DNA from: Thermoprotei archaeon
GTDB taxonomy: Archaea; Thermoproteota; Thermoprotei; Thermoproteales; B15-G16
Direction: 5' to 3'
NCBI GenBank assembly: GCA_003649205.1
Contig: QMRC01000006.1
Coordinates: 13,190-77,189, forward strand
DNA length: 64,000 bases
Below, in pieces: positions 32,234 through 54,581 of this stretch (position 1 is the first letter of the stretch; every line of letters starts with the position of its first letter). The notes under the pieces were generated by a model. That model worked only from the letters and a program-made list of their open reading frames with translations. It had not been told where the DNA came from and searched no databases. Position numbers and translations under genes: made by a program.

Positions 32234-33574
32234 GTGCACTTTATGAGATTTGGAGAGAAGCTAGGTGCGCTCTTAATGGTTGAAGCTGCATTTGCTGGAG
32301 CATACGTTAGCATTACTCGTGGTTTCTTCTACTTGATGATGGTTGAACGTGGTTATAGTGTTAGGGATCTAGCTGTAGTTAGCCTAGTGGCTTCACTATC
32401 TATGGTGCTTGTGAGCTACCTACTGTACAGGAGACCTGAGCTACTTGAGAGAAGCGTCAAGGTTAAACTCCTCACCATGCACATACTCGAGAGAATTTTC
32501 TGGTGCATTCTACCATTCATAGTGTTTAGATTTAGCTACATGTTTATCCTCCTAGCTTACTCACTAGCACAGGTCATTACTGTACCTGTGTGCGTGCTGC
32601 TGAATACTGTGTTACTCTCTCAGCTAAGTGAGGACGAGTTCAAGAGCGTTACTGGGTGGAGGAATTCCCTTGGCCTAATCTCGTCATTAAGTGCTCAGCT
32701 ATTGGCGGTCCACGTGTTAGCATCTATGAGGAGTCCAGTACGGTACTACTACCTTTACACAATTGCTCTACTCCTTGGCTTCCTCTCATGGATTCCACTT
32801 ACTATTGCTAGAGTTAGGGACTATGTGAGGAAGGTTAGTGGTTACTCTAGTGAGGAGGTTGAGGTTATTGCTGGTACTACGTTCATATACTTGGTCCTTC
32901 TACTTGGATCAGCTAACATGCTCAGCATCCTCTGGGTACCATATCTGGTGAATGACCTAGGTGCACCGAGCTACCTAGTAGCTATCATGAACGCTGCTGG
33001 TACGATCTCTGGTTCCATATCGTCAGTTCTCTGGATTAGAGTTGTGTACAGGTACTATCTCTGTGGACTAGTTATTGACTCAGCTGTACCAACCTTAGTC
33101 ATGACATTACCACCAATATTCCATCCAGCTCTAGCTGGGCTCTCAGCTTTTGGCTTTACAGCAGGTAACTTCATTGGCTACTTCATGTACTCGAAGATAG
33201 CGGAGAAAAGCGACCCCATAAAGAACTCCACTAGGTTAGCTGCTGCTAATGCACTGGGTCTCCTAATATCATTGATACCAGTTGCTATCTTGAATTTGAG
33301 CGCTAGGGATGGACTAATTCTCTGTAGTTGCTTGAAGGTACTAGCTCTCGTAATTGCTCTGCTGAGTATTAAGGAAGTATCGCCACTTCCTGATCCACGT
33401 ATCAGGACTTATAGTAAGGTAATCTTCGAGACAGGTATGTTCTCATACAGGTTAACGCTCGAATTCACTACTCACTACGTACTATATACCTTGAAGATAG
33501 TAGCTGTTGTCCTTATAATGCTCTTCATGTACTTCATCTACAGGACAGTTACCATACTGATTAGTGGTGCGTAG
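32234..33574 (+). CDS. polytopic membrane protein (MFS-like transporter)
   Basis: 446 aa with about 12 hydrophobic segments in two halves. No strong signature motif. Confidence 0.5.
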   Translation: MHFMRFGEKLGALLMVEAAFAGAYVSITRGFFYLMMVERGYSVRDLAVVSLVASLSMVLVSYLLYRRPELLERSVKVKLLTMHILERIFWCILPFIVFRFSYMFILLAYSLAQVITVPVCVLLNTVLLSQLSEDEFKSVTGWRNSLGLISSLSAQLLAVHVLASMRSPVRYYYLYTIALLLGFLSWIPLTIARVRDYVRKVSGYSSEEVEVIAGTTFIYLVLLLGSANMLSILWVPYLVNDLGAPSYLVAIMNAAGTISGSISSVLWIRVVYRYYLCGLVIDSAVPTLVMTLPPIFHPALAGLSAFGFTAGNFIGYFMYSKIAEKSDPIKNSTRLAAANALGLLISLIPVAILNLSARDGLILCSCLKVLALVIALLSIKEVSPLPDPRIRTYSKVIFETGMFSYRLTLEFTTHYVLYTLKIVAVVLIMLFMYFIYRTVTILISGA

Positions 33575-34235
33575 TATGGAGTTATTGAACATGAGCAATG
33601 GCGAGGTAGCATTTGAGAGAATAATTCAAGCATTTAAGTTGGCACTAAATGAATTGATAGCACTGGTACCTGTAGTACTAGCATCTGTCCTCATAGTTGC
33701 ACTCATGCTAGTAATTGCTAAGTACGTAGGTTCTCTTGTCAAGAGGATACTGAAGGTAGTTGGTCTAGATAGGATACTTGAGAGGTACGTAGGTACACCA
33801 CCGATATCTGTCGAGAACTTCATCGTCGTATTCATACAGCTGGGCTTCGTAATACTTGGCGTAACAATATCCGTGACAGTATTCGCACCTGAGTACCTAG
33901 CTACCTACAACATGTACCTATCCTATATACTGAGGTTGATGTCGGCTGTAGCACTCATAATAATAACGCTCTTCTGGATAGAGGTACTAGTGAATAAGAT
34001 TCGTGGTGAGAGCAAGGTAAAGGCATTTGCCTCACTAATAGCCTTCCTCCTAATACTCACCTTCATAATCGACGTAACAGCACTATCTGAAAGCGTTAAG
34101 TCATCACTCGTATTCGGAATATCCCTTGGACTTGGATTGACAATAGGAGTATTCTCCATATGGTACTTCATGCATGAATACCTTGAGCACTACATCAGCA
34201 GAAAGCATGGAGAGAAAGAGGTCAGACAAGGCTGA
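33564..34235 (+). CDS. membrane protein; its last 5 codons plus stop form attL
   Basis: 223 aa with several TM helices. The 3' end GAG GTC AGA CAA GGC TGA coincides with the 17-bp direct repeat. Confidence 0.5.
   Translation: MVRSMELLNMSNGEVAFERIIQAFKLALNELIALVPVVLASVLIVALMLVIAKYVGSLVKRILKVVGLDRILERYVGTPPISVENFIVVFIQLGFVILGVTISVTVFAPEYLATYNMYLSYILRLMSAVALIIITLFWIEVLVNKIRGESKVKAFASLIAFLLILTFIIDVTALSESVKSSLVFGISLGLGLTIGVFSIWYFMHEYLEHYISRKHGEKEVRQG
34219..34235. repeat. attL: 17-bp direct repeat AGGTCAGACAAGGCTGA
   Basis: An exact copy occurs at 45006-45022. It lies 10 bp upstream of the integrase gene. Confidence 0.75.
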
Positions 34236-34245
34236 TTGAGTTCTC

Positions 34246-35409
34246 ATGGAAGAAATCACACCTGATAGCCCTATCTATCAGGTGAGAATAGGTCTCAATT
34301 CGATGGAGTTGCTGAAGCACTTTGAGAGTTGGTTAATTGCTCAGAACCTGTCCGTGGCTACGGTTAGGTCTCATGTTAGACAGGTTAGGTCTTTCCTCAC
34401 GTGGTTTGGTAGGTCTATCGAGGATTTGAGTAGTTTCGATATTGCGTGTTACCTAGCTGAGTGCCGTAAGCGTGGTCTATCTGAGGCTAGTGTGAATCGC
34501 TATGCTTCTGCTCTCAAGAAATTCCTGAGGTTCCTAGCTAGTTACTTCAGAGCTAGGAGAAGGGTTGAGTTAGCTAATTACTTTGAGCAGGTGTACCGTG
34601 AGGTCAAGGTACCTAAGTACGACCTAGTTGAGGTCAGCATTAAGCGACACATGGAGCCTGATACAGCGAGGAAAGTCATAGACTTAATTCATGACCCCTA
34701 CTGGAAGTGCTTTTTCGCTGTGCTGTATGAGACAGGTCTGAGGTTGAGGGAGCTTAGACAGGTCAAGGTAAGTGATGTTCACGAGAACAAGCACGGGTTC
34801 GAGATAGTTGTCAGAGATAGCAAGACACCTGAGGGAGTTAGGAAAGTGTACGTGGTTGAGTACTATCAGCTACTGAGGTACTACCTAGAGCATGTACGTC
34901 CGAGAGATAGCGAGTGGTTGTTCCCTGCTAGGAGAGACCCAAGGCAACCAATCTCCGAGAAAGCAATCTACAGCTTTCTAAACCGCTTCAGAAAGCGGAC
35001 AGGTATCGTGATTAGTCCACACCGCTTTAGACACGCTAGAGCTACTGAGCTTTACCGCAAGGGAGTATCTGAGCAGTCGTTAATGAGGTTGTTTGGTTGG
35101 AGGACAAGGACAATGATTGATGTCTACAGTAAGCTTTCACAGCGAGATGTGGAGTCTGAGCTACTGAGCAAGGTCTACGGGCTATCCCCTGTAGAGAGTG
35201 AGAGGTCTCAGACTCGTAAGTGCCCGAGGTGTGGTGCTGAGGTAATACCCACAGCTAGGTACTGTCCATACTGTGGTCTAGCCCTAGATATTGCGTCAGT
35301 ATTAGGCAAAGAGGAACAGGTACGGAAATACGCAGAGCTCATTGAAGCACTGCTGAGGTACCTAGAGGAACACCCAGAGTACCTGTCGAAACTATTCTCA
35401 AGGACTTAA
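34246..35409 (+). CDS. int: tyrosine recombinase/integrase with C-terminal zinc ribbon
   Basis: N-terminal SAM-like core-binding domain. Catalytic blocks are ETGLRLRELRQVKVSDV (Arg), HRFRHARATELY (H-x-x-R) and LFGWRTRTMIDVYS (Tyr). The C-terminal tail carries CPRCGAEV..YCPYCG. Confidence 0.9.
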   Translation: MEEITPDSPIYQVRIGLNSMELLKHFESWLIAQNLSVATVRSHVRQVRSFLTWFGRSIEDLSSFDIACYLAECRKRGLSEASVNRYASALKKFLRFLASYFRARRRVELANYFEQVYREVKVPKYDLVEVSIKRHMEPDTARKVIDLIHDPYWKCFFAVLYETGLRLRELRQVKVSDVHENKHGFEIVVRDSKTPEGVRKVYVVEYYQLLRYYLEHVRPRDSEWLFPARRDPRQPISEKAIYSFLNRFRKRTGIVISPHRFRHARATELYRKGVSEQSLMRLFGWRTRTMIDVYSKLSQRDVESELLSKVYGLSPVESERSQTRKCPRCGAEVIPTARYCPYCGLALDIASVLGKEEQVRKYAELIEALLRYLEEHPEYLSKLFSRT

Positions 35410-35562
35410 AAGCGGACATGAAACACAGGCAGAGAACACCAAGACCCGCCCTATAGTCCAGAGGAAATGTTGCCTGAATTCAACAATAGTCTAATATGCG
35501 TATACGTGTGAGTGAACAGCGAGCGAGGTAATACACCACTTGAGGATGAATAGGGGCTCCTC

Positions 35563-35631
35563 GGGGGATGATGAAGGGCTTAGCGGAGCGACCCCGCAAG
35601 GGGGTATGGCTGGACCAGGCTAGCTGACCCC
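35563..35631 (+). ncRNA. GC-rich structured RNA candidate with external C/D-box-like K-turn (element-borne)
   Basis: GGGG-AUGAUGA (C box 35568-35574) ... CUGA (35624-35627)-CCCC terminal stem, with an internal CCCC-GCAA-GGGG tetraloop hairpin (35592-35603). The internal D'/C' boxes are not recognisable. Confidence 0.35.
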
Positions 35632-35753
35632 TACCCCCTCGCCCCGTGATAATGGGTTATTATCACCAATATTTAAGTTTCTATGCAATTACAGTGAAAT
35701 TACCATGGTTACTTTCTCGTGAGGGGGTTTAAGAACCCTTGATACGTCTTTGC

Positions 35754-36101
35754 TTAGCCTTTCTTTCTGATTAGTCCTCCTATTGCTCCTCCTATCATTG
35801 ATAGGAATGCTGAGGCTAGCATCATGAATATTATTGCTAACCCTGCTAACCCACCTGCCCATGCTCCTAGGAATCCAGCTACTGAGAAGCCTAGTACTGT
35901 CAGCACTATTGCTGCTAGTATTCCTCCAATGATTCCACTGAGGAACCCTGCTGCTGCTCCTCTACCTGCTCCTCCTCCAGCTACTAGACCTGCTATGAAG
36001 CCTCCAAGTACTGGTGCGAAGATGTGTAGTATGGGTGAGAGTACGGCTGTAGCTAACATACCTGCAAAGACACCAGCTATGAAACTCAGTACACGACCCA
36101 T
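35754..36101 (-). CDS. Gly/Ala-rich small membrane protein
   Basis: 115 aa with 3-4 TM helices made of G/A/I/L repeats and a basic C-terminus. The opposite-strand ORF is a Pro/Ala shadow. Confidence 0.5.
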   Translation of the reverse strand: MGRVLSFIAGVFAGMLATAVLSPILHIFAPVLGGFIAGLVAGGGAGRGAAAGFLSGIIGGILAAIVLTVLGFSVAGFLGAWAGGLAGLAIIFMMLASAFLSMIGGAIGGLIRKKG

Positions 36102-36371
36102 GTAGGGAAAACCCCGAGGAAACCAGATACAGAGAGGACATAAAGCAGTTCAGAACATAGAGAGCAATGAACCTAGCAACCTCAGAGGACAGAAAACAAG
36201 AACGCTCCTCCGGTCGGTGATGAATACTTGTACTTTTCTCTCGGTGACTTTCCTCAAGGCACTAAATAAGAAATTGCTCTACTCTACAGTGGTATGGATT
36301 CTGAGGATTTTTGGATTGGTTTTCTCCTTGGTTACAGTACTGGTCTTATTCATGCGAAAAACTTAACAACT

Positions 36372-36755
36372 TCAGAACTTGTCTTCAGGCTCATTTCCTG
36401 TTCCTTCATGCTCAGTGAGTTGTTGGGTACTAGACTTAATGAGTTCTTCAGCTCTTTGGAGAAGTTCAGCGACTTCACGACCCTTCTCAGTGAGCTCAAT
36501 GTACCTAAGACCGTGCTTGGTATACGTCCTAACAAGACCGTACTGAAGACAGGTACTGAGGGCTCTGTAAGTACTGACAGGTGAGATACCGTATCTCTGA
36601 AGTTCTCTAATGTGCATAGCTCTACCTGTTTTGTGAAGAATTAGCAGCAATTTAATTCCCGGTCTACCTAAGTCATCAGCTAGAGCTGACATTTTCCTCT
36701 GTCGTTTTCTGGTGATAAACCTAATAACGATATCTTCGAGCATTCGTAACCTCAT
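36372..36755 (-). CDS. winged-helix transcriptional regulator
   Basis: LLLILHKTGRAMHIRELQRYGISPVSTYRALSTCLQYGLVRTY..YIELTEKGREV is a wHTH (ArsR/MarR-like) pattern. It is transcribed divergently from the RHH-led operon. Confidence 0.65.
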   Translation of the reverse strand: MRLRMLEDIVIRFITRKRQRKMSALADDLGRPGIKLLLILHKTGRAMHIRELQRYGISPVSTYRALSTCLQYGLVRTYTKHGLRYIELTEKGREVAELLQRAEELIKSSTQQLTEHEGTGNEPEDKF

Positions 36756-36786
36756 TCTCAGTCTATACCCGATTTAGAGGTATCAC

Positions 36787-36850
36787 GTAATAATATTACA
36801 ACGCTATATCTCGAAACTGATAAATTGTTATAACGTTACAGAGTTGTAAC
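36787..36850. promoter_or_regulatory. divergent promoter/operator region with inverted repeats
   Basis: GTAATAATATTAC (36787-36799), palindrome GTTATAAC (36827-36834) and GTTACA-gagt-TGTAAC (36835-36850). All lie between the wHTH gene and the RHH gene. Confidence 0.4.
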
Positions 36851-36853
36851 AGG

Positions 36854-37051
36854 GTGAGAGAGGTGCCTAAGAGTAAGGTGCCTATGGTCTTGGTTACCTT
36901 CCATATCCCGATACCACTCCTTAGAGAACTTGACAGGTTGGTGGAGGAGGGTAAGTTCCCGAGCAGGAGCGAGGCGATAAGGCACGCAATAATCCAACTC
37001 CTAGCTCGTGAGCGTCAAAGAACACAAATACACGAGGTGTTGGTAGCGTGA
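36854..37051 (+). CDS. ribbon-helix-helix (CopG/Arc-type) DNA-binding protein
   Basis: MVLVTFHIPIPLLRELDRLVEEGKFPSRSEAIRHAI is a textbook RHH pattern. The true start may be the ATG at 36884. Confidence 0.7.
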   Translation: MREVPKSKVPMVLVTFHIPIPLLRELDRLVEEGKFPSRSEAIRHAIIQLLARERQRTQIHEVLVA

Positions 37052-37296
37052 CCATTGTCAACTATGTCGAGGTAATTAGGAACATCATACTCAATGCTTT
37101 GAAGGAGCATGGCTACATTAGTGACCTAGAGCTTGTTAGGGCTGTCAAAGAGGCTACGGGACTCAGCTACGTAGACTTTGCTCCCATTCTTGAGCAGGTA
37201 CTGAGTGAGCTAATGAGGTCTGGCGCAATTAGACGTGTAATGTCAGCAAGCAACCCGAGAAAGGTCGAGCATGGGTGGGAGCTGTGTACACAATAA
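37048..37296 (+). CDS. hypothetical protein (element)
   Basis: 82-aa ORF coupled to the upstream RHH gene by a GTGA overlap. Confidence 0.5.
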   Translation: MTIVNYVEVIRNIILNALKEHGYISDLELVRAVKEATGLSYVDFAPILEQVLSELMRSGAIRRVMSASNPRKVEHGWELCTQ

Positions 37297-37640
37297 AGCC
37301 GAATGGATTCTACCTCAGGTTGGTTTTGGATGCACTGAAGTACTGTGCTAGGACTGAAAGAGGCTCTATTGTGTCTATTTACCCAAAGAAAGTCGCTAAG
37401 TTAAATGGGTACAGTGTTCGTGCATGTGGGAGGTATAGAGATGACAGTGAGGTAGAGAGGTCGCTATCCCCTGCCGAGCTATCTATCATTAGGTACTGGC
37501 TGGATTACCTCTGGGTCAATGGGCTGTGTAGCCGTGAGAAGACTAGTCGTGACAGGTGGAACTACGTATTCCCGAGGGAGAACTTGCCTAAGGCTATCAA
37601 GCTACTTGAGGAGGTGCTCAATGGTGAAGTACAAGATTGA
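37275..37640 (+). CDS. hypothetical protein (element)
   Basis: 121-aa ORF in the co-directional early-gene string. Confidence 0.5.
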   Translation: MGAVYTIKPNGFYLRLVLDALKYCARTERGSIVSIYPKKVAKLNGYSVRACGRYRDDSEVERSLSPAELSIIRYWLDYLWVNGLCSREKTSRDRWNYVFPRENLPKAIKLLEEVLNGEVQD

Positions 37641-37761
37641 GGAGATAGTCAAGGAGTTGAAGGTTGCTCTCAGGGATAGAGAACTCAGAGAAGCATTGCT
37701 GAAGCACTTCTCCAACAACCCAAAGGCTCAAGCAATCATACTACTCCTGTCAGGTGAGTGA
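37621..37761 (+). CDS. small hypothetical protein (element)
   Basis: The ATG at 37621 (MVKYKIEEIVKELKVALRD..) overlaps the previous stop. The longer track ORF from 37519 overlaps the preceding gene extensively. Confidence 0.35.
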   Translation: MVKYKIEEIVKELKVALRDRELREALLKHFSNNPKAQAIILLLSGE

Positions 37762-38000
37762 GCATGATTGAGCTGAGTTTCAAGACGAAGCGGGACTTCG
37801 ATAACTGGGTTAAGGCGCTGTATGACTTCGGTTCGAATCACTGTGTTGAGCCTGTCGTCATCAAGCTAGATGGTAATGACCTCTACGACAGGTACATGGT
37901 CTGCATTGTGTACCATGCTTGGACTGAGGAAGGTGCTTACGCAGTGACCTGTCTAGCCCGCATAGTAGCGATAGTGTACAGGGAAGGTGAGCAGAAGTGA
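37758..38000 (+). CDS. hypothetical protein (element)
   Basis: 80-aa ORF with a 4-bp overlap with each neighbour. Confidence 0.5.
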   Translation: MSMIELSFKTKRDFDNWVKALYDFGSNHCVEPVVIKLDGNDLYDRYMVCIVYHAWTEEGAYAVTCLARIVAIVYREGEQK

Positions 38001-38179
38001 GTCGCTACCACGGGCACAAGGTAACTATCACGATTATTGCGACAACAGGTTCTGGACTACCGACAGGTGAGCGAAAGAGCGATTTCATTAGATTCATGGT
38101 CGAGCAGGTACTGGAACGTGAGCTTTCTAAGAGGCTCCGTGATTTCCGTGTCCTCAAAGTCATGGTGAAGGTGATGTAG
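37997..38179 (+). CDS. hypothetical protein (element)
   Basis: 60-aa ORF with a GTG start overlapping the previous stop. Confidence 0.4.
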   Translation: MSRYHGHKVTITIIATTGSGLPTGERKSDFIRFMVEQVLERELSKRLRDFRVLKVMVKVM

Positions 38180-38258
38180 ATGGTTCCTGCTACTACTACC
38201 TATTCTATTTCTAGTAATTCGTTTAGACAAAATACGCGGGACATTAAACGCGGTTCAG

Positions 38259-38383
38259 ATTGGAACCAATGTTCCCTCTCAGAGGAATCATTGAAACCAA
38301 TCATTGGAATCAATGTCAGTGGTATGATTGGAACCAATGATTGGAACCAATCATTCCACTCGCTTAGTCTCATTGGTTCCAAA
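38259..38383. repeat. iteron-like array of ATTGGAACCAAT half-palindromic 12-mers
   Basis: Copies lie at 38259-38270, 38290-38301 (ATTGAAACCAAT), 38303-38314 (ATTGGAATCAAT), 38327-38338, 38340-38351 and, inverted, 38372-38383 (ATTGGTTCCAAa). The region has no convincing ORF. Confidence 0.7.
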
Positions 38384-38394
38384 AACGGAGAGAG

Positions 38395-38718
38395 GTGTTG
38401 AGTATCCCCCGAATAACTATCTACATCCATGAGAGCGATTGGGAAAAGCTGACGAAAATAGCTGAGCAGAGAGGACAATCAATGTACAGCATAGTGAAGC
38501 AAGTAGTACTTGAGTTCCTGAAGCTAAGTAACCCAATTGTTGCTCATGGTAAGCTTTCTAGGGATTTAGCTACCTGTCGGAGCATTATCAAGCGATTTGG
38601 TTGGTGTGCTCTCTGCATACATGCTGAGGTTGTTGGTGATAGGTTAGTCTGCAGAAAGACAGGCAAAGTCATAGAAAAACCCATATGGCAATGCCCACAC
38701 CCCATACCCAAGGTGTAA
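38395..38718 (+). CDS. RHH-like N-terminal domain protein with Cys-rich C-terminal region
   Basis: ITIYIHESDWEKLTKIAEQRGQSMYSIVKQVVLEFL has a beta-strand/helix/helix pattern. The C-terminal region is CALCIHAE..CRKTG..CPH. It lies directly downstream of the iteron array. Confidence 0.5.
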   Translation: MLSIPRITIYIHESDWEKLTKIAEQRGQSMYSIVKQVVLEFLKLSNPIVAHGKLSRDLATCRSIIKRFGWCALCIHAEVVGDRLVCRKTGKVIEKPIWQCPHPIPKV

Positions 38719-38727
38719 ATCATGCTT

Positions 38728-38751
38728 TTTACACAGCTGCAGCTGTGTAAA
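38728..38751. promoter_or_regulatory. perfect 24-bp palindrome TTTACACAGCTGCAGCTGTGTAAA
   Basis: Read directly from the sequence. It is flanked by an AAATCAT / ATGATTT inverted pair and GTAAAT repeats, in the 76-bp gap upstream of ORF 38795. Confidence 0.5.
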
Positions 38752-38794
38752 TGATTTTTACTCACTGACAGGTGCGTAAATTTGGTGAGAATTC

Positions 38795-39163
38795 ATGTCC
38801 GAGATGGAGAAGTTAATTAGGAACCTGAACATACTGCGAAACTACTTCAGCAAGGTACCACCTGAAGTCATTGAGGCTCTCATGTACTTTGAGGATAGGT
38901 TCTTCACTGAGAAATACCATGTTGTTCGCTCTAAGACAGGTAGGGAGTATCGCTACAGGTACCTCTACATCAGGTTGAATGACTACAGGACACTAGGTTA
39001 CTTCAGGATAAATGATAGCAATGATGAATTGCTGCTACACGAAATTAGGCAGGTCAAGGCATTTTCACAAGCACTACTACAGTACATAGCAATGCTCAGA
39101 CACAGCAAACTAGCAAACCTCACCAAAATTTACTCAAGGACCTTGAGTAAAAACAACCAATAA
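38795..39163 (+). CDS. hypothetical protein (element)
   Basis: 122-aa ORF with no recognisable motif. Confidence 0.5.
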   Translation: MSEMEKLIRNLNILRNYFSKVPPEVIEALMYFEDRFFTEKYHVVRSKTGREYRYRYLYIRLNDYRTLGYFRINDSNDELLLHEIRQVKAFSQALLQYIAMLRHSKLANLTKIYSRTLSKNNQ

Positions 39164-39224
39164 CACATCAGCAATTGGGGAAATTGAATTGGGGTGATGC
39201 CCCCTGAACCTCAAGGTCTATTTC

Positions 39225-40211
39225 GTGAAGAAAACTAGGCAATACGAGGTCTATGAGGGCTCTAGGAGAATCCTCAGGACTAAGGTACATGCAAAAGCTC
39301 ACGAGTACCTATCGAAACAAATCAATTCAAGTTTTGAGTTCTACTTTGTTTGTTGCAATAGGGAGCACCTGTTAGCATGTTCACGTTTCTTTGAACTCAC
39401 AGGTCGCAGGCTCAATGTGTTGATTAGTTACAACTTCATACGTGACAGGTACCTCACACAGGTGCTTCAGCAAGTTAGACCACACCTAAGCAAAGTCATG
39501 ATTGATTCAGGTGCTTTCCATGTACTTATCCGCAAGGTACCCCTGGAAAAGTTCCAGAGCTACATAGGTGAGTACGTGAATTGGCTCAACAACCACACAG
39601 AGCTTTACGACTACTGTGTCGCACCTGACGTACCCTGTGATGAACGACCCGCAGAAAAAATCCAGAAACTACCAAACAGGTACAAGATAGAGCTAACCAT
39701 AGCTAACACAGTTCACTGGATAGATAGGTTGACAGACCCTCGCAAGGCTGTGGCTGTAGTTCAGGGTTATTTCGTGAATGAGTACCTGCTCTGTGCTGAG
39801 AAGCTGAAAGAACTCGGGCTCACAACAGCAAAGACAGGTGTCGGCTCTTTATGTGTCAGGAAATACAGTAGACAACAAGCACGTGAAGTACCACAGATAC
39901 TAGCTAGCATAAGACAGGTCTTACCGTCATGGGTGAAACTTCACGCATTCGGTCTTCAGCTAGATTTCTTACCGACCTGTCTCAAGTACCTACACAGCTC
40001 AGACAGTGCCTCATGGCAATTAAGTTACTCAAAGTTCAATAGGATACGAATAGCGAACCTGTCGACAGGTCAAACAGTTGAGCTTGATTTAGTTAGTCAT
40101 GGCGGAGCGAGGAAAAAGAACCTAGACCAAGTCACGATATACACATACAACCTCTTAGCCTACTGGAATAGAGTTCAGCAACTAACGAGACAGGCAGCAC
40201 AGACAAAATAA
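39225..40211 (+). CDS. TGT-fold transglycosylase, DpdA-like (candidate DNA or tRNA 7-deazaguanine transglycosylase)
   Basis: The order of blocks matches tRNA-guanine transglycosylases. These are MIDSGAFHV (Asp94, cf. DSGGFQ), AVVQGY (cf. VQGG), GVGSLC, KLHAFGL (cf. xLxGxG) and HSSDSASW (Asp260, cf. FDS/FDC). There is no PUA domain and no Cys-Cys-Cys-His zinc site, as in the short phage/island DpdA proteins. Confidence 0.6.
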   Translation: MKKTRQYEVYEGSRRILRTKVHAKAHEYLSKQINSSFEFYFVCCNREHLLACSRFFELTGRRLNVLISYNFIRDRYLTQVLQQVRPHLSKVMIDSGAFHVLIRKVPLEKFQSYIGEYVNWLNNHTELYDYCVAPDVPCDERPAEKIQKLPNRYKIELTIANTVHWIDRLTDPRKAVAVVQGYFVNEYLLCAEKLKELGLTTAKTGVGSLCVRKYSRQQAREVPQILASIRQVLPSWVKLHAFGLQLDFLPTCLKYLHSSDSASWQLSYSKFNRIRIANLSTGQTVELDLVSHGGARKKNLDQVTIYTYNLLAYWNRVQQLTRQAAQTK

Positions 40212-40230
40212 AGTAAGTGTTGAAAACTGC

Positions 40231-40995
40231 TCAAGTCCCCATGTTCTCTATCTCATGTCCTGTAGGGTATAGGTTCAGTTTCTTTATGTACTTGTACACT
40301 GTTTGACGTGAAACACCGAGTGCTCTAGCTATATCACTTATACTGTAACCTTTCTTCAACATATCCTCAATAGTCTTCTCCCTATTAGCAGTCTGGATAG
40401 CTACCTGTAAGTCCATGAACACCTTCTCAACAAAGAGCCTCCTCATTTCCTGATACTTCACATAGATGTCGTGGTCTAGCTTAGGCACGAAGGTATCTAC
40501 ACCAATTTCCTTCACCACGAACTTACCCGTAGGAGTCCACGTAAACCTGTAGATGTGTGCCTCTCTCTCACCTTGCTTACTCTTCCTAATGTGTACATGT
40601 ATCCAACACATCTCACGTAGTGCTCTTAAGAGCAGGCGATAGGTAGGTACCGTGAATATGACAGCACCTGTCACAGTCCTAGCAACCTCAAGGAACTTTA
40701 CAAATAGCTGACGGTCTTCTTTAAGAAAGTCATATTTGCTTATCCACACACCAGCATCATCATAGCACAGACACTTAACACGCTTACGATACCTAAGACA
40801 CTCCCTAATAATTGGGAAAGACTGCTTAACATCGAAGAATACGTAGTTGAGAGCAGTCTCCCTACAATACAGCTCACTCAAGACCTTGATAGCGTAGGTA
40901 GTCTTACCAACCCCTTGCTGACCCTGAATAACAATAACCTCAAATCCATTGTTCCTGAAAGCACGCTCAATTATCTTAGTTAGGACAAACGGCAT
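40231..40995 (-). CDS. P-loop NTPase with C-terminal helix-turn-helix
   Basis: Walker A QGQQGVGKTTYA, Walker B-like CLCYDDAG, and a C-terminal GYSISDIARALGVSRQTVYKYIKKL (resolvase/HTH_7-like). Confidence 0.7.
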   Translation of the reverse strand: MPFVLTKIIERAFRNNGFEVIVIQGQQGVGKTTYAIKVLSELYCRETALNYVFFDVKQSFPIIRECLRYRKRVKCLCYDDAGVWISKYDFLKEDRQLFVKFLEVARTVTGAVIFTVPTYRLLLRALREMCWIHVHIRKSKQGEREAHIYRFTWTPTGKFVVKEIGVDTFVPKLDHDIYVKYQEMRRLFVEKVFMDLQVAIQTANREKTIEDMLKKGYSISDIARALGVSRQTVYKYIKKLNLYPTGHEIENMGT

Positions 40996-40998
40996 ACC

Positions 40999-41301
40999 TC
41001 ACTCCTCCTCAATCTCCTCCTCACGACCAACAGGTATGAACCTCTTACGACCCATTACATGCGTTATAGTCCTGAAGAACTTAGCAAACGATAGCAGAGC
41101 TGAGTAACCACGACCGCCCTCAGCTAACCTCAACTCAAGGTAAGGTATGATGAATGAGTCTCTCAAGTCCTGAAGGTTGTACCTGTCGCATATGAAGAGC
41201 AACGTAGCTATCTTACGAGCCTCACCATACTGCAACCTAGTTAAGCGAAGTATGTTCCCCGAGGTAAGAGCCTCAATTAGTTCCTCTGACATGAGCCTCA
41301 C
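40999..41301 (-). CDS. hypothetical protein (element)
   Basis: 100-aa ORF with an acidic tail, coupled to the neighbouring genes. Confidence 0.5.
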   Translation of the reverse strand: MRLMSEELIEALTSGNILRLTRLQYGEARKIATLLFICDRYNLQDLRDSFIIPYLELRLAEGGRGYSALLSFAKFFRTITHVMGRKRFIPVGREEEIEEE

Positions 41302-41302
41302 C

Positions 41303-41758
41303 TCACAGGTGAATGATACCGAACTTCACGAGCATGAACATGATGTACGCACCTATGATTAACCCACAAATCAGAGCAATGATGACAGGAGTAGCCCTAA
41401 CAGGTACCTTCTCCGTTAGCAGAGCCCTCAGTACCTGTCCCTTGATAATCTGCGATATAGTGTCACTATCAATGTAGGGGTCTTGATATTGACCACAGAA
41501 GTACACTATCTTTCTGACAGGTGCCCACACCTTCACGTCTCTAAACACCCTAACCCTACCCCCAGCAAGCACCAGCTTCCTCTCCGGATTGAGCAATTTA
41601 GCAGGCGTAATCTCGACATGCTTATCGTTCACGATAATAGCTATGTGCTTTGACCTGAAGATACGTCCTTCAGGTCTCGCTAGGAACATCATGATGAATG
41701 TGACAGGTATAGCTACGCAGTATATTGCGACTAGGATAGGGCTCAACATAGGGCTCAC
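41303..41758 (-). CDS. membrane protein (element)
   Basis: 151 aa with N- and C-terminal TM helices. Confidence 0.5.
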   Translation of the reverse strand: MSPMLSPILVAIYCVAIPVTFIMMFLARPEGRIFRSKHIAIIVNDKHVEITPAKLLNPERKLVLAGGRVRVFRDVKVWAPVRKIVYFCGQYQDPYIDSDTISQIIKGQVLRALLTEKVPVRATPVIIALICGLIIGAYIMFMLVKFGIIHL

Positions 41759-42280
41759 CTACAGAGTCTTCTCAGCTTCAGCAATGAGCTTGTTCAGGAC
41801 CTGCTCAACCCTCTCAATTCGCTTAGCTAACTCACTGAGCCTATCCTCACTATGATTTGAGCCTAGCTTACTCACGTCGATAGCGTCTAGGAATATCGAG
41901 AGCGGAACAGCAATAGCGTACTCAAACCTCTCAACCTTACCACTCTGCTCGACAGGTATCGTAACTTGCTGAGCCTCCCTCTCCCTCACCAAAATCAGAA
42001 CACGGTCAGGATTCCTAACCGCAGAGACAGGTAGCTTAGACAGGTACGGTCTCCTACCTGTCTCACTTTCGGACGTGTACGGTCTACCTCTCTGAAAGTG
42101 AAGTACTAAGCACAGAGCACCGAGACTAGCTAGAGCAATGAAACCAACCCACTTCAGCGTAAAGACCGCTCCAGAGGATATCTTAGCAGTCAGTGGTGAC
42201 AGGTATGGGTCATACCAAATCAAGTACATGACTGCACCTGTGAGCAGTGCTGTGCTCAGGTAAAGGAAACGAGTACTCAC
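41759..42280 (-). CDS. membrane protein (element)
   Basis: 173 aa with three N-terminal TM helices and a C-terminal coiled segment. Confidence 0.5.
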   Translation of the reverse strand: MSTRFLYLSTALLTGAVMYLIWYDPYLSPLTAKISSGAVFTLKWVGFIALASLGALCLVLHFQRGRPYTSESETGRRPYLSKLPVSAVRNPDRVLILVREREAQQVTIPVEQSGKVERFEYAIAVPLSIFLDAIDVSKLGSNHSEDRLSELAKRIERVEQVLNKLIAEAEKTL

Positions 42281-42405
42281 TTACAACCCACCTCACTTAT
42301 GTAAACTTTTTCACAAAAACCATAAGGTCAACTTGCGAGATATCCTGAATAATCACTGAACACGGAGCAAACCTGAGACAGGTCGAAAAGTAGGAGGTGA
42401 AGTAG

Positions 42406-42765
42406 GTGGACATAGACCTAGGGAACATCCTGAGAGCTGTCCTGTTTGTAGCCCTAATACCCACGCTATTCGGAGCTATAGCTGGATTCGTTGACCCTTC
42501 ACTACAACCAATGATACAGCCCCTACTCAGCCTAGTACCAATGCTCATAATCCTCAACCTAATCAAAGACCTGTTCTCAGAAGCTGGAGCAAAGGGATTC
42601 GTCAAGATATTCGATATCCTACTGCTCGTAATGATGTTACCTGTCCTAATCAACATGTTCGGAGCAGCCACAGGACAAAACGAAGCACTAGCACAAGTCT
42701 CAGGACTCCTACAGCAACTCCTACCAATCCTACTATTCATCAAGCTCATCGAAGAGATGGTTTAG
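42406..42765 (+). CDS. small membrane protein (element)
   Basis: 119 aa with 3-4 TM helices. It is immediately upstream of the large glycoprotein gene. I prefer it to the antisense track ORF 42297..42749. Confidence 0.5.
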   Translation: MDIDLGNILRAVLFVALIPTLFGAIAGFVDPSLQPMIQPLLSLVPMLIILNLIKDLFSEAGAKGFVKIFDILLLVMMLPVLINMFGAATGQNEALAQVSGLLQQLLPILLFIKLIEEMV

Positions 42766-42786
42766 TTCCTTCGAGGTGATTAAGCT

Positions 42787-44541
42787 ATGAAACCCAAGCC
42801 CCTTTTTGCAATCTTAACAGTACTCACTCTAGTGCTCATAGTGGCGGTTGTTAATGCTGGTGAGTACACGCTATACGATGTACTTCAGTACGCTCATGAG
42901 GTACATGTCTTCGGAAAGACATACAACACAGCAAGTTATGGCACCACAACTTACTCTGGGACATGGAATCTAACTGATGTTGTGTCGGGGAGGAAAGTTA
43001 CATTTGGCTACAGGCAATACCTACAAGACCCAGATAGCTCCGACACAATCGTTATTGTGTTTCAGAAGAATACAGCTATCGAGGTCGGTACTGGTAGCGG
43101 GAAGTGTGTCTACGGTAAACCTGTCGTAATTACGTATGATACTGAAACAGGAAGGAGGACTATGTACTACATTGATGGCGGTGAACTGAAGAAAGTAGGT
43201 GAATTCACTGGTGGTACCTACGTCTACTGGAACGGTACAAAGTTATGTCAAGCACTACGTTTCAAGGACTGGTTAGATTTCCACAAGTTCTTTAACAACA
43301 CATGCATGTTAATACTCCCAGACATCACGACATACGACTACAGGATAATTGATGGGTCTTCCGAGCTATTAAAGGATAAGTGTGGTGGAAATGGTTTCCA
43401 CACCCTCATTATCTTCGGTGGTGAGTACCTAAACAAATCGATAATTGTTGAAGTTGCTGGAGCCTACGGAATCAAGAACATAACGCTCACTACAGAACTC
43501 AACACAGTCTACACGATTGACCCAAAGCACTTGAAGTTAGCTGTGTTCACAGGTAACCTAACGGAGACGCTATCGAGGGCGAGCCAGAGCACAGAGGAAA
43601 GTACACAGGAAAGTACAACTAACACGACAAACGAGACCTCAACACCAACCACAGCACCAGAGACGAAGGTGTACAAGGTCACGATACATGTCTACGATGT
43701 GGATACCAATGAGGAAATCACATCAGCAATGGTTAAGGCGGGTTGGTTCACGAAGACAGGTTCACCTGTTACCTTTGAGTTCAAGTGGAAGGAACCACAG
43801 TGGTTACCTATCTCAGCTAGTGCTACAGGTTACAAGTCCTTCAGCACAACTATCTGGGTCGATACCAACATGACGCTGTGGGTAGGGCTAGTCAAGGAAA
43901 CCTCGAACAGCACCGAGCAATACAGTAAATTACTGAGGCTCGGTGTCTCAATTGCGGGTGTTGGTTCAACTCCATATTGGGCTCAGGAAAACAAGACATT
44001 CACAGAGTGGGCTAATGAGGTTGAGCAGTTACTATCCTCATCACAGGCTCCTGAGGTTAAGTATGAGACTACGTGGTATGGTTTGAAGATAGTCGCTGTG
44101 AAGGTACCTTCAGGTAGACCAGCATACGGAGTAGCGACTATTGTCGCTGTTAAGAAAGGATTTCTCGGTACCCTAACATGGGAAGAAGAACTCGGTACTG
44201 TGCAAATAGTGAATGGTACGGGTTATTTCCATGTTGACTACGAGACAATCAAGAACAAGCTACAACTCAAAGAGTGGGGAGGGGAGTACTTCTACGGTTT
44301 CAAGATTGTATGGAAGGTCGGTGACCTAGACCCAGAGGTCGAGGTTGTACCTGTCAAGAATACATGGACGCCTGTCTACATTCAGGTGAATGAGCAGACA
44401 GGAACCTACTCAGCAACAACACTACCACAGACAGCATTAACGAATGTCGGAACATCACTAACACAGATGCTCATAACCCTACTACCACTGTTCATCATAT
44501 TCGCACTCATTGGAGCTATTACAGGTCGTAGAAGGCGATAG
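42787..44541 (+). CDS. large secreted, C-terminally anchored glycoprotein-like protein (candidate virion/envelope or surface protein)
   Basis: Signal peptide MKPKPLFAILTVLTLVLIVAVVNA. Many N-x-S/T sequons. Thr/Ser-rich linker ESTQESTTNTTNETSTPTTAPETK. C-terminal TM helix plus RRRR stop-transfer. Confidence 0.6.
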   Translation: MKPKPLFAILTVLTLVLIVAVVNAGEYTLYDVLQYAHEVHVFGKTYNTASYGTTTYSGTWNLTDVVSGRKVTFGYRQYLQDPDSSDTIVIVFQKNTAIEVGTGSGKCVYGKPVVITYDTETGRRTMYYIDGGELKKVGEFTGGTYVYWNGTKLCQALRFKDWLDFHKFFNNTCMLILPDITTYDYRIIDGSSELLKDKCGGNGFHTLIIFGGEYLNKSIIVEVAGAYGIKNITLTTELNTVYTIDPKHLKLAVFTGNLTETLSRASQSTEESTQESTTNTTNETSTPTTAPETKVYKVTIHVYDVDTNEEITSAMVKAGWFTKTGSPVTFEFKWKEPQWLPISASATGYKSFSTTIWVDTNMTLWVGLVKETSNSTEQYSKLLRLGVSIAGVGSTPYWAQENKTFTEWANEVEQLLSSSQAPEVKYETTWYGLKIVAVKVPSGRPAYGVATIVAVKKGFLGTLTWEEELGTVQIVNGTGYFHVDYETIKNKLQLKEWGGEYFYGFKIVWKVGDLDPEVEVVPVKNTWTPVYIQVNEQTGTYSATTLPQTALTNVGTSLTQMLITLLPLFIIFALIGAITGRRRR

Positions 44542-44544
44542 AGC

Positions 44545-44847
44545 ATGACTAACCGCTACGTCTACCTTGGAAAGAAAGTGAAGGACATAGGCAAGAAAGG
44601 ACTAGACCGACCAAGCGAGTACCTAGCAATAGCGAGAGCTATAGCACAAGACTACAAGGCTGGTAGGATAAGTAAAAAGACTGCTCACGGACGCTTTTTA
44701 CTACTTTACAGGCTCGTGGATAAGAATAGCAAGCTGAAGGTACCTAAGTCAGTTAAGGAACGTCTCAAACGCAAGATTAAGGAAATCTGGATGAAGACCA
44801 TTGGAGGTGGGAAGGTGGCTCGAAAGAGGAAAAGAAAGAAAAGGTAG
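44545..44847 (+). CDS. small basic protein (possible nucleic-acid-binding)
   Basis: 100 aa, Lys/Arg-rich, with the C-terminal tail ARKRKRKKR. Confidence 0.5.
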   Translation: MTNRYVYLGKKVKDIGKKGLDRPSEYLAIARAIAQDYKAGRISKKTAHGRFLLLYRLVDKNSKLKVPKSVKERLKRKIKEIWMKTIGGGKVARKRKRKKR

Positions 44848-45003
44848 GCTCAAGTCACATCACCTGTATGTCGCTCTAACTACCTAATTTCTTGAGCTTG
44901 CTCTAGTCCTCAAGAATTCTTTACACATGTCTCATGTCCTGCGACCTGTCACCTAGACCTGAACTAGCTCAAGACAGAAGGTGGGTGACTTCTCTCAACT
45001 TAT

Positions 45004-45060
45004 TTAGGTCAGACAAGGCTGAATTCTTCACGGATCTGCCTCGCCTGGGCTCATCATAAA
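45004..45060 (-). ncRNA. C/D box sRNA (dual guide) whose 3' end is the att core
   Basis: The minus strand reads AUGAUGA(C, 45051-45057)-GCCCAGGCGAGG(12)-CAGA(D', 45035-45038)-UCC-GUGAAGA(C', 45025-45031)-AUUCAGCCUUGU(12)-CUGA(D, 45009-45012)-CCU. Confidence 0.75.
45006..45022. repeat. attR: 17-bp direct repeat AGGTCAGACAAGGCTGA
   Basis: Exact copy of 34219-34235. It lies inside the 3' part of the minus-strand C/D box sRNA. Confidence 0.75.
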
Positions 45061-45101: not shown

Positions 45102-45860
45102 CTAATCAGCAATCACATACCTAACCTCACCAGTGAAGCACCACTCACTCTCATCACTACGTTTGAGATCCACATCTACACACTTCTGCTGAAGATACAG
45201 TATTAGTTCTCGACTCGGGATTGCCTCACTAGGTAGTGAATCAAGAACACGTCTATACTGTACAGCTATGATTCCATCGAAGTACTTACTTAGCTCCTCA
45301 ACTGACTCAACAACCTTACTCTCTGGAATTAACTCAATACCGAAGAGGATGTAAGCAATGAAGCTAACCTCATCACCATAAACTTCACGACATTTCTCCC
45401 TAAGAGCATTCAACCTCACAATCTCACTCTGAGGAATACCCTTACACAACACAGCATTTCTCAGGTACTCATCCCAAACCTCAATACCAACCCTAATAAC
45501 GAGCCTACTAGGTTTAAGCAGCTCAAGCACCTGTCTCACAGAGTCAAAACTTAGGTACTCAGGTCTAGACTCAATATCCACAATTCTACCACAGGTAAAT
45601 CTAGAGAGCTTGAGCACGGTATCCAGAGGTAGCTCAAAGAATGAACCACCATTAAATACAGTAATTCTCTCAATACTAAACCTCAGGGTAGCATCTTCCA
45701 GAAGCGACAATATCTTGTCATTTGTCTGAATTACATCGGATAGTGAGTTACCTGCCTCAAGGAAGAAGGGACAGAAGACACATCTACCCCAACGACATCT
45801 AAATCCCTTGAGTATCACGATAGCTCTCTTCCTAGATCTCTCAATCACAACACCTAGCAC
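45102..45860 (-). CDS. RaSEA-like radical SAM protein (archaeosine formation partner of ArcS)
   Basis: Cys triad CRWGRCVFC (C-x4-C-x2-C, Elp3-like spacing) near the N-terminus, about 250 aa. It overlaps and is co-directional with the ArcS-like gene, the arrangement known for ArcS/RaSEA. Confidence 0.55.
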   Translation of the reverse strand: MLGVVIERSRKRAIVILKGFRCRWGRCVFCPFFLEAGNSLSDVIQTNDKILSLLEDATLRFSIERITVFNGGSFFELPLDTVLKLSRFTCGRIVDIESRPEYLSFDSVRQVLELLKPSRLVIRVGIEVWDEYLRNAVLCKGIPQSEIVRLNALREKCREVYGDEVSFIAYILFGIELIPESKVVESVEELSKYFDGIIAVQYRRVLDSLPSEAIPSRELILYLQQKCVDVDLKRSDESEWCFTGEVRYVIAD

Positions 45861-46557
45861 TGAGAATCTCCCTCAAACCACTAATTAACTTACTCAAACT
45901 AGTTGGAGTTATGAGTATGAGATCTGGATCATCGTAGTAACCACCTAGAGATACCTCATCAAGCTCATGAGGAGGTACCTCATTAACTCTCGCAGCTAAG
46001 TTCTTAACCTCAATACCTAGCATGGAACAAGCACGCTCTAGAGCAGCATAGCTATCTGAATCCCACCTTAGATACGACACAAAGCACTCATAATAACTCC
46101 TAAATCTACTCAGGAACAATCTCAATCTCTCACAGGTAACCTCCCTATAGAGTACCTTCACTTCACTAGTTTCATACTTAGGATTCCAGTCATACGCACA
46201 ATAGGGGTAGTACTCTTCAAGCTCTCTCGGTACGATACCGGCATTCGTTATAATGACTTGATGAATATCCTCGTAGTACCTACCTAACGACTTCAAAGCC
46301 CTAATTATGAAGTAGTGTATGTAGGATTGAGAGTACGGCTTACCGTAAGCACATGGTAGGAAGAGACAGACTCTATACCTCTTCCTTGGCTTCCACTCAG
46401 TTAGTAATCTCTTAAAACCCTCTTCAAAGAATGGGTGCTTAAGGTACCTAAGACCTACACCTCTGAGGAATTCCCTACCATCACCAGACCAGATAAGTTC
46501 GTGACCATCCCAAATAACGTACAAGCTAGATCCCTCAAGAAGTTCTCCACAAACCAA
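45841..46557 (-). CDS. ArcS-like protein (stand-alone DUF5591/ArcS catalytic-type domain)
   Basis: LPCAYGKPYSQSYIHY is an exact match to the ArcS signature PC-x3-KPY-x2-S-x2-H. At 238 aa it has no PUA domain. Confidence 0.75.
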   Translation of the reverse strand: MVCGELLEGSSLYVIWDGHELIWSGDGREFLRGVGLRYLKHPFFEEGFKRLLTEWKPRKRYRVCLFLPCAYGKPYSQSYIHYFIIRALKSLGRYYEDIHQVIITNAGIVPRELEEYYPYCAYDWNPKYETSEVKVLYREVTCERLRLFLSRFRSYYECFVSYLRWDSDSYAALERACSMLGIEVKNLAARVNEVPPHELDEVSLGGYYDDPDLILITPTSLSKLISGLREILSARCCD

Positions 46558-50227: not shown

Positions 50228-50285
50228 GAATCAGACAATAGCCCCCAGCTCCTCATCGCTCAGTGGTAGGTCTCTTCATCACCTA
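50228..50285 (-). ncRNA. candidate C/D box sRNA overlapping the 3' end of the glycosyltransferase gene in sense
   Basis: The minus strand reads GUGAUGA(C, 50276-50282)-AGAGACCUACCA(12)-CUGA(D', 50260-50263, contains the stop codon)-GCG-AUGAGGA(C')-15 nt-CUGA(D, 50231-50234). The second spacer is longer than canonical. Confidence 0.4.
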
Positions 50286-54400: not shown

Positions 54401-54581
54401 TAACTAATCTCATATTGAAGAACTCAAAGGTATCCACAGACACCACTATACCATCTCCTAGAAAGAGCTGAGAGGATGCCCAGATACAGATGGCTAAACC
54501 CATAACTGAGGGAAGTTCTTTGCGAAGCGATGATCGTAATGTGTATAGACTCCTCCTCACTGTCTTCTCCTCGGTGTCCAC
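51444..54581 (-). CDS. very large polytopic membrane protein with extracytoplasmic C-terminal domain (GT-C-like candidate)
   Basis: 1045 aa, with about 13 TM helices in the first 420 residues, a roughly 600-aa soluble region and a terminal TM. It lies in a glycosylation-type neighbourhood. Confidence 0.5.
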   Translation of the reverse strand: MDTEEKTVRRSLYTLRSSLRKELPSVMGLAICIWASSQLFLGDGIVVSVDTFEFFNMRLVKEKVLKLCDLTWNMGTLDPENIRLSLYYVITYLISMIFGPTNYVKVWYSTSILLSYVLTYMLLRHLGFSKATSAIAAVFYATSPFLLNRLAIGQVLFCIGYSLTPLTVLLADLLTEKPRRDYAIYLGLALALVSMTQLHLVVLTPLLVVLYVLVKRKNLRKVIRYVPYTAIACALPLLPWLLSLYYTITTIPGYGLVPIEELVTRWGEAEVTSLSTALLYAPFVSVSSAGALVPYFEYVLVLWLACILTIALSRIRCRIVQVGFVLYVIGIVLAFLPYLATEQYIALYRVVPALSLFRESTKFLYLSAVGLTLLIATSIDALRMVLSTRLRFRTVHSLSIKVLIAVVMMFISIVAVGSTPHFLLHSLASIEFFKLAKPPTMTHDVVSRLSGLVLDRVMWFPDSASVYPRYLPTKTFVKDIAQELSPLPLIGVWYRRGVVYLPGCLQDLVAHTYYFYELNLANFKVLNWSTVPRCLGVKYIVVDDVSGEFMANPLKFFKAIKHYWGVRKLPFVTAVPPSPKVAASRTCLVIVGDLFTLDLLQDLGVDVAEVPTAHLLGDFFQQNLTTLLGGELDHVILVLSSSTIYDILPYLTQDAIVIDLSRYCEPRKNYTVSWAALSPEIYLWLARLGYAFSSVVACEKSGCNLKVVFRVEKSGVYLLLIRALKHDRGGEIEVVIDGRVFSVSTRSSVVSLRFIPVGILYLSNGLHEVEVVNVCGLNVIDVLLFVKSDEVERINDLLRGLIERGYLSLLYVWEPELWLRSGDFVKCSRVRGLALKLRDGDTLHLEVPNLSIPYWVYALAWGDEGCALCVKSVRGTYSISLPNFPHLVFLGEHCGSNVIFSVRGGAECGMCVDYVLVLFSTKFTSLRELVKYLRSSVVGVNFRDLSLNLDRGTYVVEWKVKYYPRDIWCVVGCRECARFTGVCFTTTSLVRVTSDCTHIAFTPVVNHVVCTCAVVTSVLTLVLWVITCTRLGSQLMYLVRSRLWR

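Follow-up and report, generated by a model that had tools for sequence, protein, structure and literature searches.

What does the gene at positions 39225..40211 (+ strand) of the analysed stretch of Thermoprotei archaeon contig QMRC01000006.1 (64,000 nucleotides, hereafter the window) contribute to the small integrated element that carries it: an enzyme that modifies the element's own DNA, a tRNA-modifying enzyme, or neither? The original prediction had described the product as a minimal DpdA-like protein with the fold of tRNA-guanine transglycosylases (TGTs), encoded on an integrated element, and this description was borne out by profile matches, a fold search and the mapping of active-site residues. 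What the analysis reported here establishes is the family, the fold and the catalytic constellation of the protein, as well as its provirus context and the lack of pathway genes in the element. The gene probably encodes a DpdA-family guanine transglycosylase that takes preQ0, or a close derivative of it, from the host and places it in the DNA of the element, thereby blunting restriction; that DNA and not tRNA is the substrate, that preQ0 is the inserted base and that the role is one of anti-restriction are points that we infer by analogy with DpdA systems studied elsewhere.

The dpdA-like gene is an intact open reading frame (ORF) of 328 codons with a GTG start and stands at the end of the early/regulatory block on the + strand of the element. 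Its product contains, in this order, the motif blocks MIDSGAFHV (D94), AVVQGY (Q180), GVGSLC (residues 205-210), KLHAFGL (238-244) and HSSDSASW (D260), all at the residues at which they had originally been reported, a set that is far beyond chance; 68 residues remain C-terminal of D260. Four independently built profile libraries were used and all returned matches: Pfam (PF23859 'DpdA', E 2.8e-6, 27.0 bits for a gathering cutoff of 27), PHROG (PHROG 1279 'queuine tRNA-ribosyltransferase', 4.1e-11, residues 71-272, and PHROG 887, 1e-7, residues 62-154), NCBIfam (NF041059 'tRNA-guanine transglycosylase DpdA', 9.6e-8, query residues 88-263 aligned to model positions 87-258) and PADLOC (DpdA, 1e-6). 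When 5.8 billion proteins were searched through a word index, only 11 clusters (90% identity) were retrieved, which were 42-47% identical to the query, all of them metagenomic and every one carrying a precomputed PF23859 match, and PF23859 scores of 38-75 bits were obtained for the homologues P0010, P0017, P0020 and vir519. An exhaustive profile search of 1.84 billion representatives yielded 736 clusters with E <= 1e-3, of which 216 reached E <= 1e-10 and only about seven belong to the tight subfamily of the query. The hidden Markov model (HMM) built for the family scored the DpdA of phage CAjan at 2e-14, that of STSV2 at 1.3e-13, that of SIRV1 at 2e-8 and E. coli Tgt at 5e-3; since CAjan and STSV2 DpdA rank well above Tgt, the family lies on the DNA-modifying side of the superfamily.

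After a profile of 11 sequences had given a weak result in hhalign against the single E. coli Tgt sequence, the family profile was deepened to 148 representatives. Globally aligned with E. coli Tgt, this deeper profile is collinear through six motifs, though the hhalign probability is low: D94 corresponds to D89, D135 to D143, Q180 to Q187, GVGS to VGGL, KLHAFG to YLMGVG and D260 to D264, and the two aspartates previously taken for the catalytic ones of TGTs, D94 and D260, thus align with D89 and D264 of the E. coli enzyme. In TGTs, the D89-type residue is the general acid/base, the D143- and Q187-type residues bind the base and the D264-type residue is the nucleophile. Conservation among the 148 representatives is nearly complete at these positions (D94 in 144, the others being gaps; D135 in 147; Q180 in 148; D260 in 147) and at their neighbours (G181 in 148, H240 and G243 in 147 each), F242-G243 is invariant or nearly so, and F98, the aromatic residue that sandwiches the base, is kept. 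The equivalent residues of Salmonella DpdA are Asp95, Asp130, His181 and Asp256, and the substitutions D95A and D256A abolish its activity (PMC10164549). When aligned by the family HMM, all three aspartates of CAjan DpdA (an enzyme with genetic validation), STSV2 gp15 and SIRV1 ORF306 line up with D94, D135 and D260 of the query, which on the strength of these alignments possesses the three active-site aspartates of the TGT superfamily.

An AlphaFold2 model computed from an 11-sequence alignment was confident (predicted local distance difference test, pLDDT, 82.8; predicted template modelling score, pTM, 0.86) and indicates a (beta/alpha)8 TGT-like fold, as found in the TGT superfamily. The original prediction had proposed a comparison with TGT, ArcTGT and DpdA structures, and these ranked top in a Foldseek search of the Protein Data Bank (PDB): bacterial TGT 5utj (4.5e-7), Pyrococcus horikoshii ArcTGT 1iq8_A (TMq 0.59) and DpdA 7ui4 (1.3e-6). 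Among predicted viral structures, the top matches were phage 'queuine tRNA-ribosyltransferases', including those of Sulfolobales Beppu rod-shaped virus 1 (SBRV1) and Vibrio phage nt-1. Class II aldolase TIM barrels followed closely in the PDB ranking (3e-6), and because generic TIM barrels rank so near to TGT the fold by itself is not decisive. This proximity is what would be expected if the gene were an inactive relic, or if a generic aldolase-like TIM barrel had been mislabelled by fold likeness; in line with that, direct sequence (phmmer) and shallow-profile searches of the PDB found no TGT or DpdA, and the hhalign comparison with single Tgt was statistically weak. Against such an explanation stand the four DpdA-specific profile matches, the collinearity of the six TGT motifs, catalytic residues that are invariant in 148 relatives, and the intact ORF with its 42-47% identical homologues, by which it is largely refuted and made extremely improbable.

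The original prediction had further noted that the protein has neither a PUA domain nor a zinc site, which held: no Pfam match to PUA, to TGT (PF01702) or to DUF6610 (PF20314, E <= 1) was obtained, there is no CxCxxC motif and no cysteine lies past residue 252. The CxCxxC motif is equally absent from the DpdAs of CAjan, Rosebush, nt-1, STSV2 and SIRV1 and from all 148 family representatives; the missing zinc site and PUA domain are therefore normal for viral DpdAs and not distinctive of this one, the zinc site being kept solely by bacterial DpdA and tRNA TGTs (PMC10164549). These features bear on a second alternative, namely that the element has brought in a tRNA-directed TGT whose substrate is tRNA of the host or of the virus, for instance one that supplements ArcTGT. 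The TGT-like Q180 together with the TGT catalytic triad, the archaeosine-related genes of the host (described below) and an N-terminal beta-hairpin in the model (strands 7-11 and 14-19), which could resemble the N-terminal lid of TGTs, would all suit such an enzyme. We nevertheless consider it very unlikely, as the protein has no PF01702 match and is devoid of the zinc subdomain and the C1-C3/PUA domains that tRNA TGTs use for RNA (PMC10164549), with the family HMM DNA-modifying DpdAs score about 35 bits higher than Tgt, and there are no tRNA genes in the element or elsewhere in the window.

The integrated-element context claimed for the gene was confirmed by a flanking repeat and an integrase. 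A perfect 17-nt direct repeat, AGGTCAGACAAGGCTGA, is present at 34219..34235 (attL), where it runs across the terminal codons and stop of a host gene (33564..34235), and again at 45006..45022 (attR); an estimated 0.01 exact 17-mer pairs would be expected by chance in 17 kb, and since the two copies bracket this span we place the element at approximately 34219..45022 (10.8 kb). A XerA-like tyrosine integrase (34246..35409, +; Phage_integrase 3e-24, SAM-like N domain, NCBIfam XerA 7e-33) starts 11 nt past attL and carries a C-terminal Zn_Ribbon_1 (Pfam, residues ~323-345). Integration has taken place at the 3' end of a gene for a host membrane protein and not in a tRNA gene; neither at the att site nor across the window was any tRNA or Rfam family found. 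That the target gene encodes a Vut_1/YhhQ transporter was considered and rejected (BLASTP E 3.8, no Vut_1 Pfam match). An empty-site check of the att boundaries gave no support, synteny around the host ArcS gene introduced below not being conserved in relatives. Convergent to the dpdA-like gene lies 40231..40995 (-), for which the predicted identity, a P-loop ATPase with a helix-turn-helix (HTH) domain, was confirmed by a C-terminal HTH_7; it matches phrog_5484 (5e-41) and is a homologue of the 'DnaA-like' B251 protein of SSV1, with 30-35% identity to the DnaA-like proteins of SMF1 and SSV1-7 and further matches in Archaeoglobi pleomorphic viruses, Aeropyrum viruses and one bicaudavirus (tblastn). 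With an integrase, flanking repeats and a B251-type ATPase common to fuselloviruses and pleomorphic viruses, the 10.8-kb element is an integrative, virus-like provirus of fusellovirus- or pleomorphic-like type in an uncultured member of the Thermoprotei; no capsid protein was identified in it. The suggestion that the ATPase and the DpdA-like protein cooperate was not supported, the ATPase being a fusellovirus B251 core protein that is not conserved beside DpdA homologues elsewhere, and a role as a DpdB-like partner was likewise rejected (B251 homology, no PADLOC Dpd match, no synteny with DpdA homologues); it is probably the replication protein of the element.

As originally predicted for queC/D/E and folE, profile scans found no FolE, QueD, QueE, QueC or YhhQ in the element, nor did three query sets find any in the window. 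For want of preQ0-synthesis genes in the element, any such base would have to be supplied by the host pool, and genes related to archaeosine do adjoin the integration site. A 238-aa protein encoded at 45841..46557 (-) is a C1-only ArcS (DUF5591 2e-14; NCBIfam ArcS 1e-14, far below cutoff) with the exact signature PC-X3-KPY-X2-S-X2-H, present as PCAYGKPYSQSYIH, which is the motif of C1-only ArcS (PMC10516641), and a small radical S-adenosylmethionine (SAM) protein of 252 aa encoded at 45102..45860 (-) is RaSEA-like (NCBIfam RaSEA 3e-11, far below cutoff). The possibility that this pair is cargo of the element, as in STSV2, was rejected: it lies at least 80 bp outside attR and is a conserved chromosomal pair in many archaea, the C1-only ArcS having 159 homologues (50-74% identity) on chromosomes of Thermoprotei, Desulfurococcales, Pyrolobus, Bathyarchaeia and others. 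Position outside attR and wide occurrence in archaeal chromosomes identify both as host genes; as annotated, they are consistent with a host that handles preQ0, short of proving a free preQ0 pool, and use of a host pool is plausible by comparison with other DpdA-only viruses, which may draw on one (PMC6884629). In one relative (L023, 2989..5045), the ArcS-RaSEA pair follows a gene for a Vut_1/YhhQ-type queuosine-precursor transporter, an arrangement that suggests a salvage-plus-archaeosine operon in Thermoprotei.

On this basis the probable mode of action of the enzyme can be outlined. A TIM-barrel TGT core free of the zinc subdomain and of RNA-binding domains would act by double displacement on the double-stranded DNA of the element: D260 would attack C1' of the target deoxyguanosine, guanine would be displaced and a covalent enzyme-DNA intermediate formed, with D94 serving as general acid/base, D135 and Q180 reading the base and F98 stacking on it. 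The place of the guanine would be taken, after replication, by a free 7-deazaguanine base drawn from the pool of the host archaeosine pathway, most likely preQ0, and host restriction would act less readily on the element DNA so modified. DpdA is known to put preQ0 into DNA and to protect against restriction in this way (PMC6884629), and DpdA homologues of the present family recur in viruses, being found in a 46-kb contig of a filamentous crenarchaeal virus, a Methanofastidiosa virus and mycobacteriophages.

How far this proposal can be extended from characterized enzymes depends on the placement of the query within the DpdAs. The query falls, with its relatives, in PHROG 1279 and PF23859, and Gln is invariant among them (148/148) as in tRNA TGTs. 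The DpdAs of STSV2, SIRV1 and CAjan (DpdA1) instead match PHROG 887 at 1e-56 to 1e-96, do not match PF23859 and have His at the position of His181 of bacterial DpdA (bDpdA). Rosebush gp2 falls in PHROG 7068/887, and nt-1 DpdA2, which scores 6.8 bits against the family HMM, falls in PHROG 10773, which the query does not match, so that no relationship of the DpdA2 type was found. Judged by its residues and profile matches, the query is thus placed in a Gln-type 'singleton' subfamily, apart from the STSV, rudivirus and DpdA4 DpdAs of archaeal viruses, and this subfamily agrees with what Hutinet et al. described as the 'DpdA-only' group (PMC6884629). Its members include a protein of a Methanofastidiosa virus (vir519; 30% identity, 5e-15) and many mycobacteriophage 'singletons', among them gp38 of Mycobacterium phage Fefferhead, which scores 174 bits against the family HMM; no ORF of phage Orion matched the HMM (91% of the Orion genome). 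Fefferhead gp38 lies about 600 bp from the tyrosine integrase of the phage (L021, 2935..5786), a placement that echoes that of the query in its integrative element.

Several findings weigh against the insertion of host-derived preQ0. With regard to the family assignment, the PF23859 score sits exactly on the threshold, and the NF041059 score of 31.2 bits is far under the 200-bit equivalog cutoff. The Gln-type subfamily (phrog_1279) has no experimentally validated member among Rosebush, nt-1 DpdA2 and CAjan, all of which are in other PHROGs, and many of its members reside in mycobacteriophages, whose host lacks preQ0 synthesis. Genes for preQ0 synthesis by the host were not seen in the window, which is a weak negative for the host as a whole. 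In DpdA-only or archaeal cases the published findings lie between an absence of modification and very low levels, 0.02-0.04% of G (PMC6884629, PMC10516641): Orion, the sole DpdA-only mycobacteriophage tested, is without 7-deazaguanine and its host without a preQ0 pathway (PMC6884629), Salmonella phage 7-11, also DpdA-only, has dADG at 0.02% of G (PMC6884629), and STSV2 DNA carries dCDG at 0.04% of G (PMC10516641).

These same observations raise the alternative that the Gln-type subfamily consists of transglycosylases or glycosylases with another substrate or base, or of base-excision or base-exchange enzymes unrelated to 7-deazaguanines. It draws on the base-recognition Gln, which is invariant in the family where bDpdA, DpdA1 and the STSV and rudivirus DpdAs have His, on the abundance of members in mycobacteriophages, whose hosts lack preQ0 and of which Orion has unmodified DNA (PMC6884629), and on the fact that no validated Gln-type member was found among the phage DpdAs compared. 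The Gln is, on the other hand, the state of tRNA TGTs (Q187 in E. coli), enzymes that bind guanine, preQ1 and preQ0, the three aspartates and F98 are kept, and the nearest profiles are all DpdA, which makes a different substrate rather unlikely. A more specific departure from preQ0 insertion, which we regard as distinctly unlikely, would be that the Gln-type subfamily installs a base not yet described, or that the query acts together with the host C1-only ArcS and RaSEA-like proteins, encoded 80 bp past attR, to build dG+ or a derivative in provirus DNA. Such a virus-host hybrid route is conceivable since nt-1 DpdA2 together with a C1-only ArcS yields dG+ in DNA (PMC10516641), and cooperation with the host proteins, if true, would constitute a virus-host hybrid pathway of DNA hypermodification in a fusellovirus-like element. 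Insertion of preQ0 or a close derivative from the host remains the explanation that we prefer.

Upstream of the dpdA-like gene in the provirus, a block of small genes at 36854..38718 (+) includes two regulators of the ribbon-helix-helix (RHH)/CopG-like type (36854..37051 and 38395..38718). The non-coding gap at 38257..38382 holds an iteron-like cluster of at least five copies of TTGGAACCAAT, one of them degenerate, in both orientations, and is a candidate for an origin of replication or an array of operators. Just downstream of the second RHH gene, a perfect palindrome with a 10-bp stem, TTTACACAGCTGCAGCTGTGTAAA (38728..38751), is followed by a T-rich run and could be a terminator or an operator. 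Beyond the ATPase gene, a putative morphogenesis/membrane module extends over 40999..44847 and comprises small membrane proteins (41303..41758, 41759..42280 and 42406..42765) and a 584-aa protein (42787..44541, +) in which an N-terminal signal sequence is followed by a linker rich in Ser and Thr and by a C-terminal membrane anchor with RRRR at its end, and which may form a spike or lie on the surface of the virion; no Pfam, PHROG or phage-collection tblastn match was obtained for this module. On the host side, the 1045-aa ORF at 51444..54581 (-) has no Pfam or PADLOC match and adjoins a weak glycosyltransferase match at 50260..51453.

Comparison with contigs carrying related genes showed that they have dpdA alone in common with the window, plus, in the case of L012, a weak match to the ATPase, from which it follows that the dpdA-like gene moves between unrelated archaeal mobile elements. 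One of these, IMGVR_UViG_3300005265_000744 (L001/L002/L013, 46 kb), is the filamentous crenarchaeal virus mentioned above and encodes a SIRV-type coat C-terminal domain, Cren7, glycosyltransferases and a SAM methyltransferase. Its DpdA homologue is 42% identical to the query and has a 40-residue insertion past the nucleophile motif. In two further contigs (L003, 10554..11087; L008, 7081..7614), genes for a 177-aa HTH_7 protein and for another of about 105 aa come after that of the DpdA homologue and on the opposite strand, a layout that resembles the ATPase-HTH_7 gene and 100-aa ORF of the window with no detectable sequence similarity.

DpdA genes of archaeal viruses have been catalogued since 2019, and dependence on host precursors was proposed for DpdA-only viruses in the same work (PMC6884629). 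DpdA in archaeal viruses, host-precursor dependence and anti-restriction are thus already published, and the present gene adds to this concept and does not change it. Three modest additions are a tight clade of archaeal proteins that is distinct within the Gln-type subfamily, a new type of carrier (a small provirus with a B251-type ATPase in an uncultured member of the Thermoprotei) and host archaeosine-related genes adjoining the integration site. If the enzyme is active, 7-deazaguanine modification of DNA would reach a third kind of crenarchaeal mobile element, after rudiviruses and STSV. The Gln-type 'DpdA-only' subfamily is moreover poorly understood as to whether, and with which base, DNA is modified, and an archaeal host with archaeosine-pathway genes offers a cleaner setting than Mycobacterium in which to test the use of a host pool.

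Among known systems, tRNA TGTs (Tgt, ArcTGT) share the fold and catalytic constellation with the query and are its nearest structural neighbours, but the query has 'LHAFG' for their 'LMGVG' and lacks PF01702, the zinc site and the PUA or C-terminal domains. The bDpdA of Salmonella Montevideo (7UI4) likewise has the TIM-barrel TGT fold, with Asp95, Asp130 and Asp256 in the places of D94, D135 and D260; it is a protein of ~406 aa with the insertions Ins1, Ins2, Ins3 and a 128-residue Ins8, a CXCX2CX22H zinc site and His181, and it depends on the ATPase DpdB (PMC10164549). These insertions are missing from the query, as are the zinc site, His181 and a DpdB partner, and with no Dpd proteins among its neighbours (PADLOC) the query does not belong with the bacterial DpdAs. 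DpdA4 is found in haloviruses (PMC10516641), and the query, having no PF20314 match, is not of this HVTV-1 type. Closer in context are the DpdAs of archaeal viruses, homologues of which are present in 12 Ligamenvirales and 2 Bicaudaviridae (PMC6884629), with dCDG occurring in the DNA of STSV2 (PMC10516641). Gp15 of STSV1 and STSV2, ORF306 of rudiviruses (SIRV1) and the proteins of CAjan and 9g are, like the query, short TGT cores of ~290-306 aa without zinc; the STSV and rudivirus proteins also share the archaeal-virus context and aligned LHxxG and SxD(S/T) motifs with it, and their genomes lack preQ0 synthesis genes as well (PMC6884629, PMC10516641). This group differs in having His (the position of His196 in 9g) where the query has Gln and shows no BLAST similarity to it, and neither the strong PHROG 887 match nor the conserved His of its members was found in the query; furthermore, STSV2 encodes its own C1-only ArcS, whereas at the present locus the corresponding gene belongs to the host. 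The greatest likeness is to the singleton phage DpdA-like proteins (Fefferhead gp38 and the protein of Caudoviricetes sp. vir519), which have the profile families PHROG 1279 and PF23859 in common with the query, share with it the motifs DSG(A/G)F, D..PC, (I/V)QGY, G(I/V)GS, KLHAFG and S.DS..W and the invariant Gln, and are similarly ~250-330 aa long, without a zinc motif and encoded in viral genomes without preQ0 genes. They are only 25-30% identical to the query, whose tight archaeal clade has an extra conserved N-terminal segment of ~36 aa, and the hosts differ as well: the Thermoprotei host of the provirus has archaeosine-related genes, whereas Mycobacterium has none.

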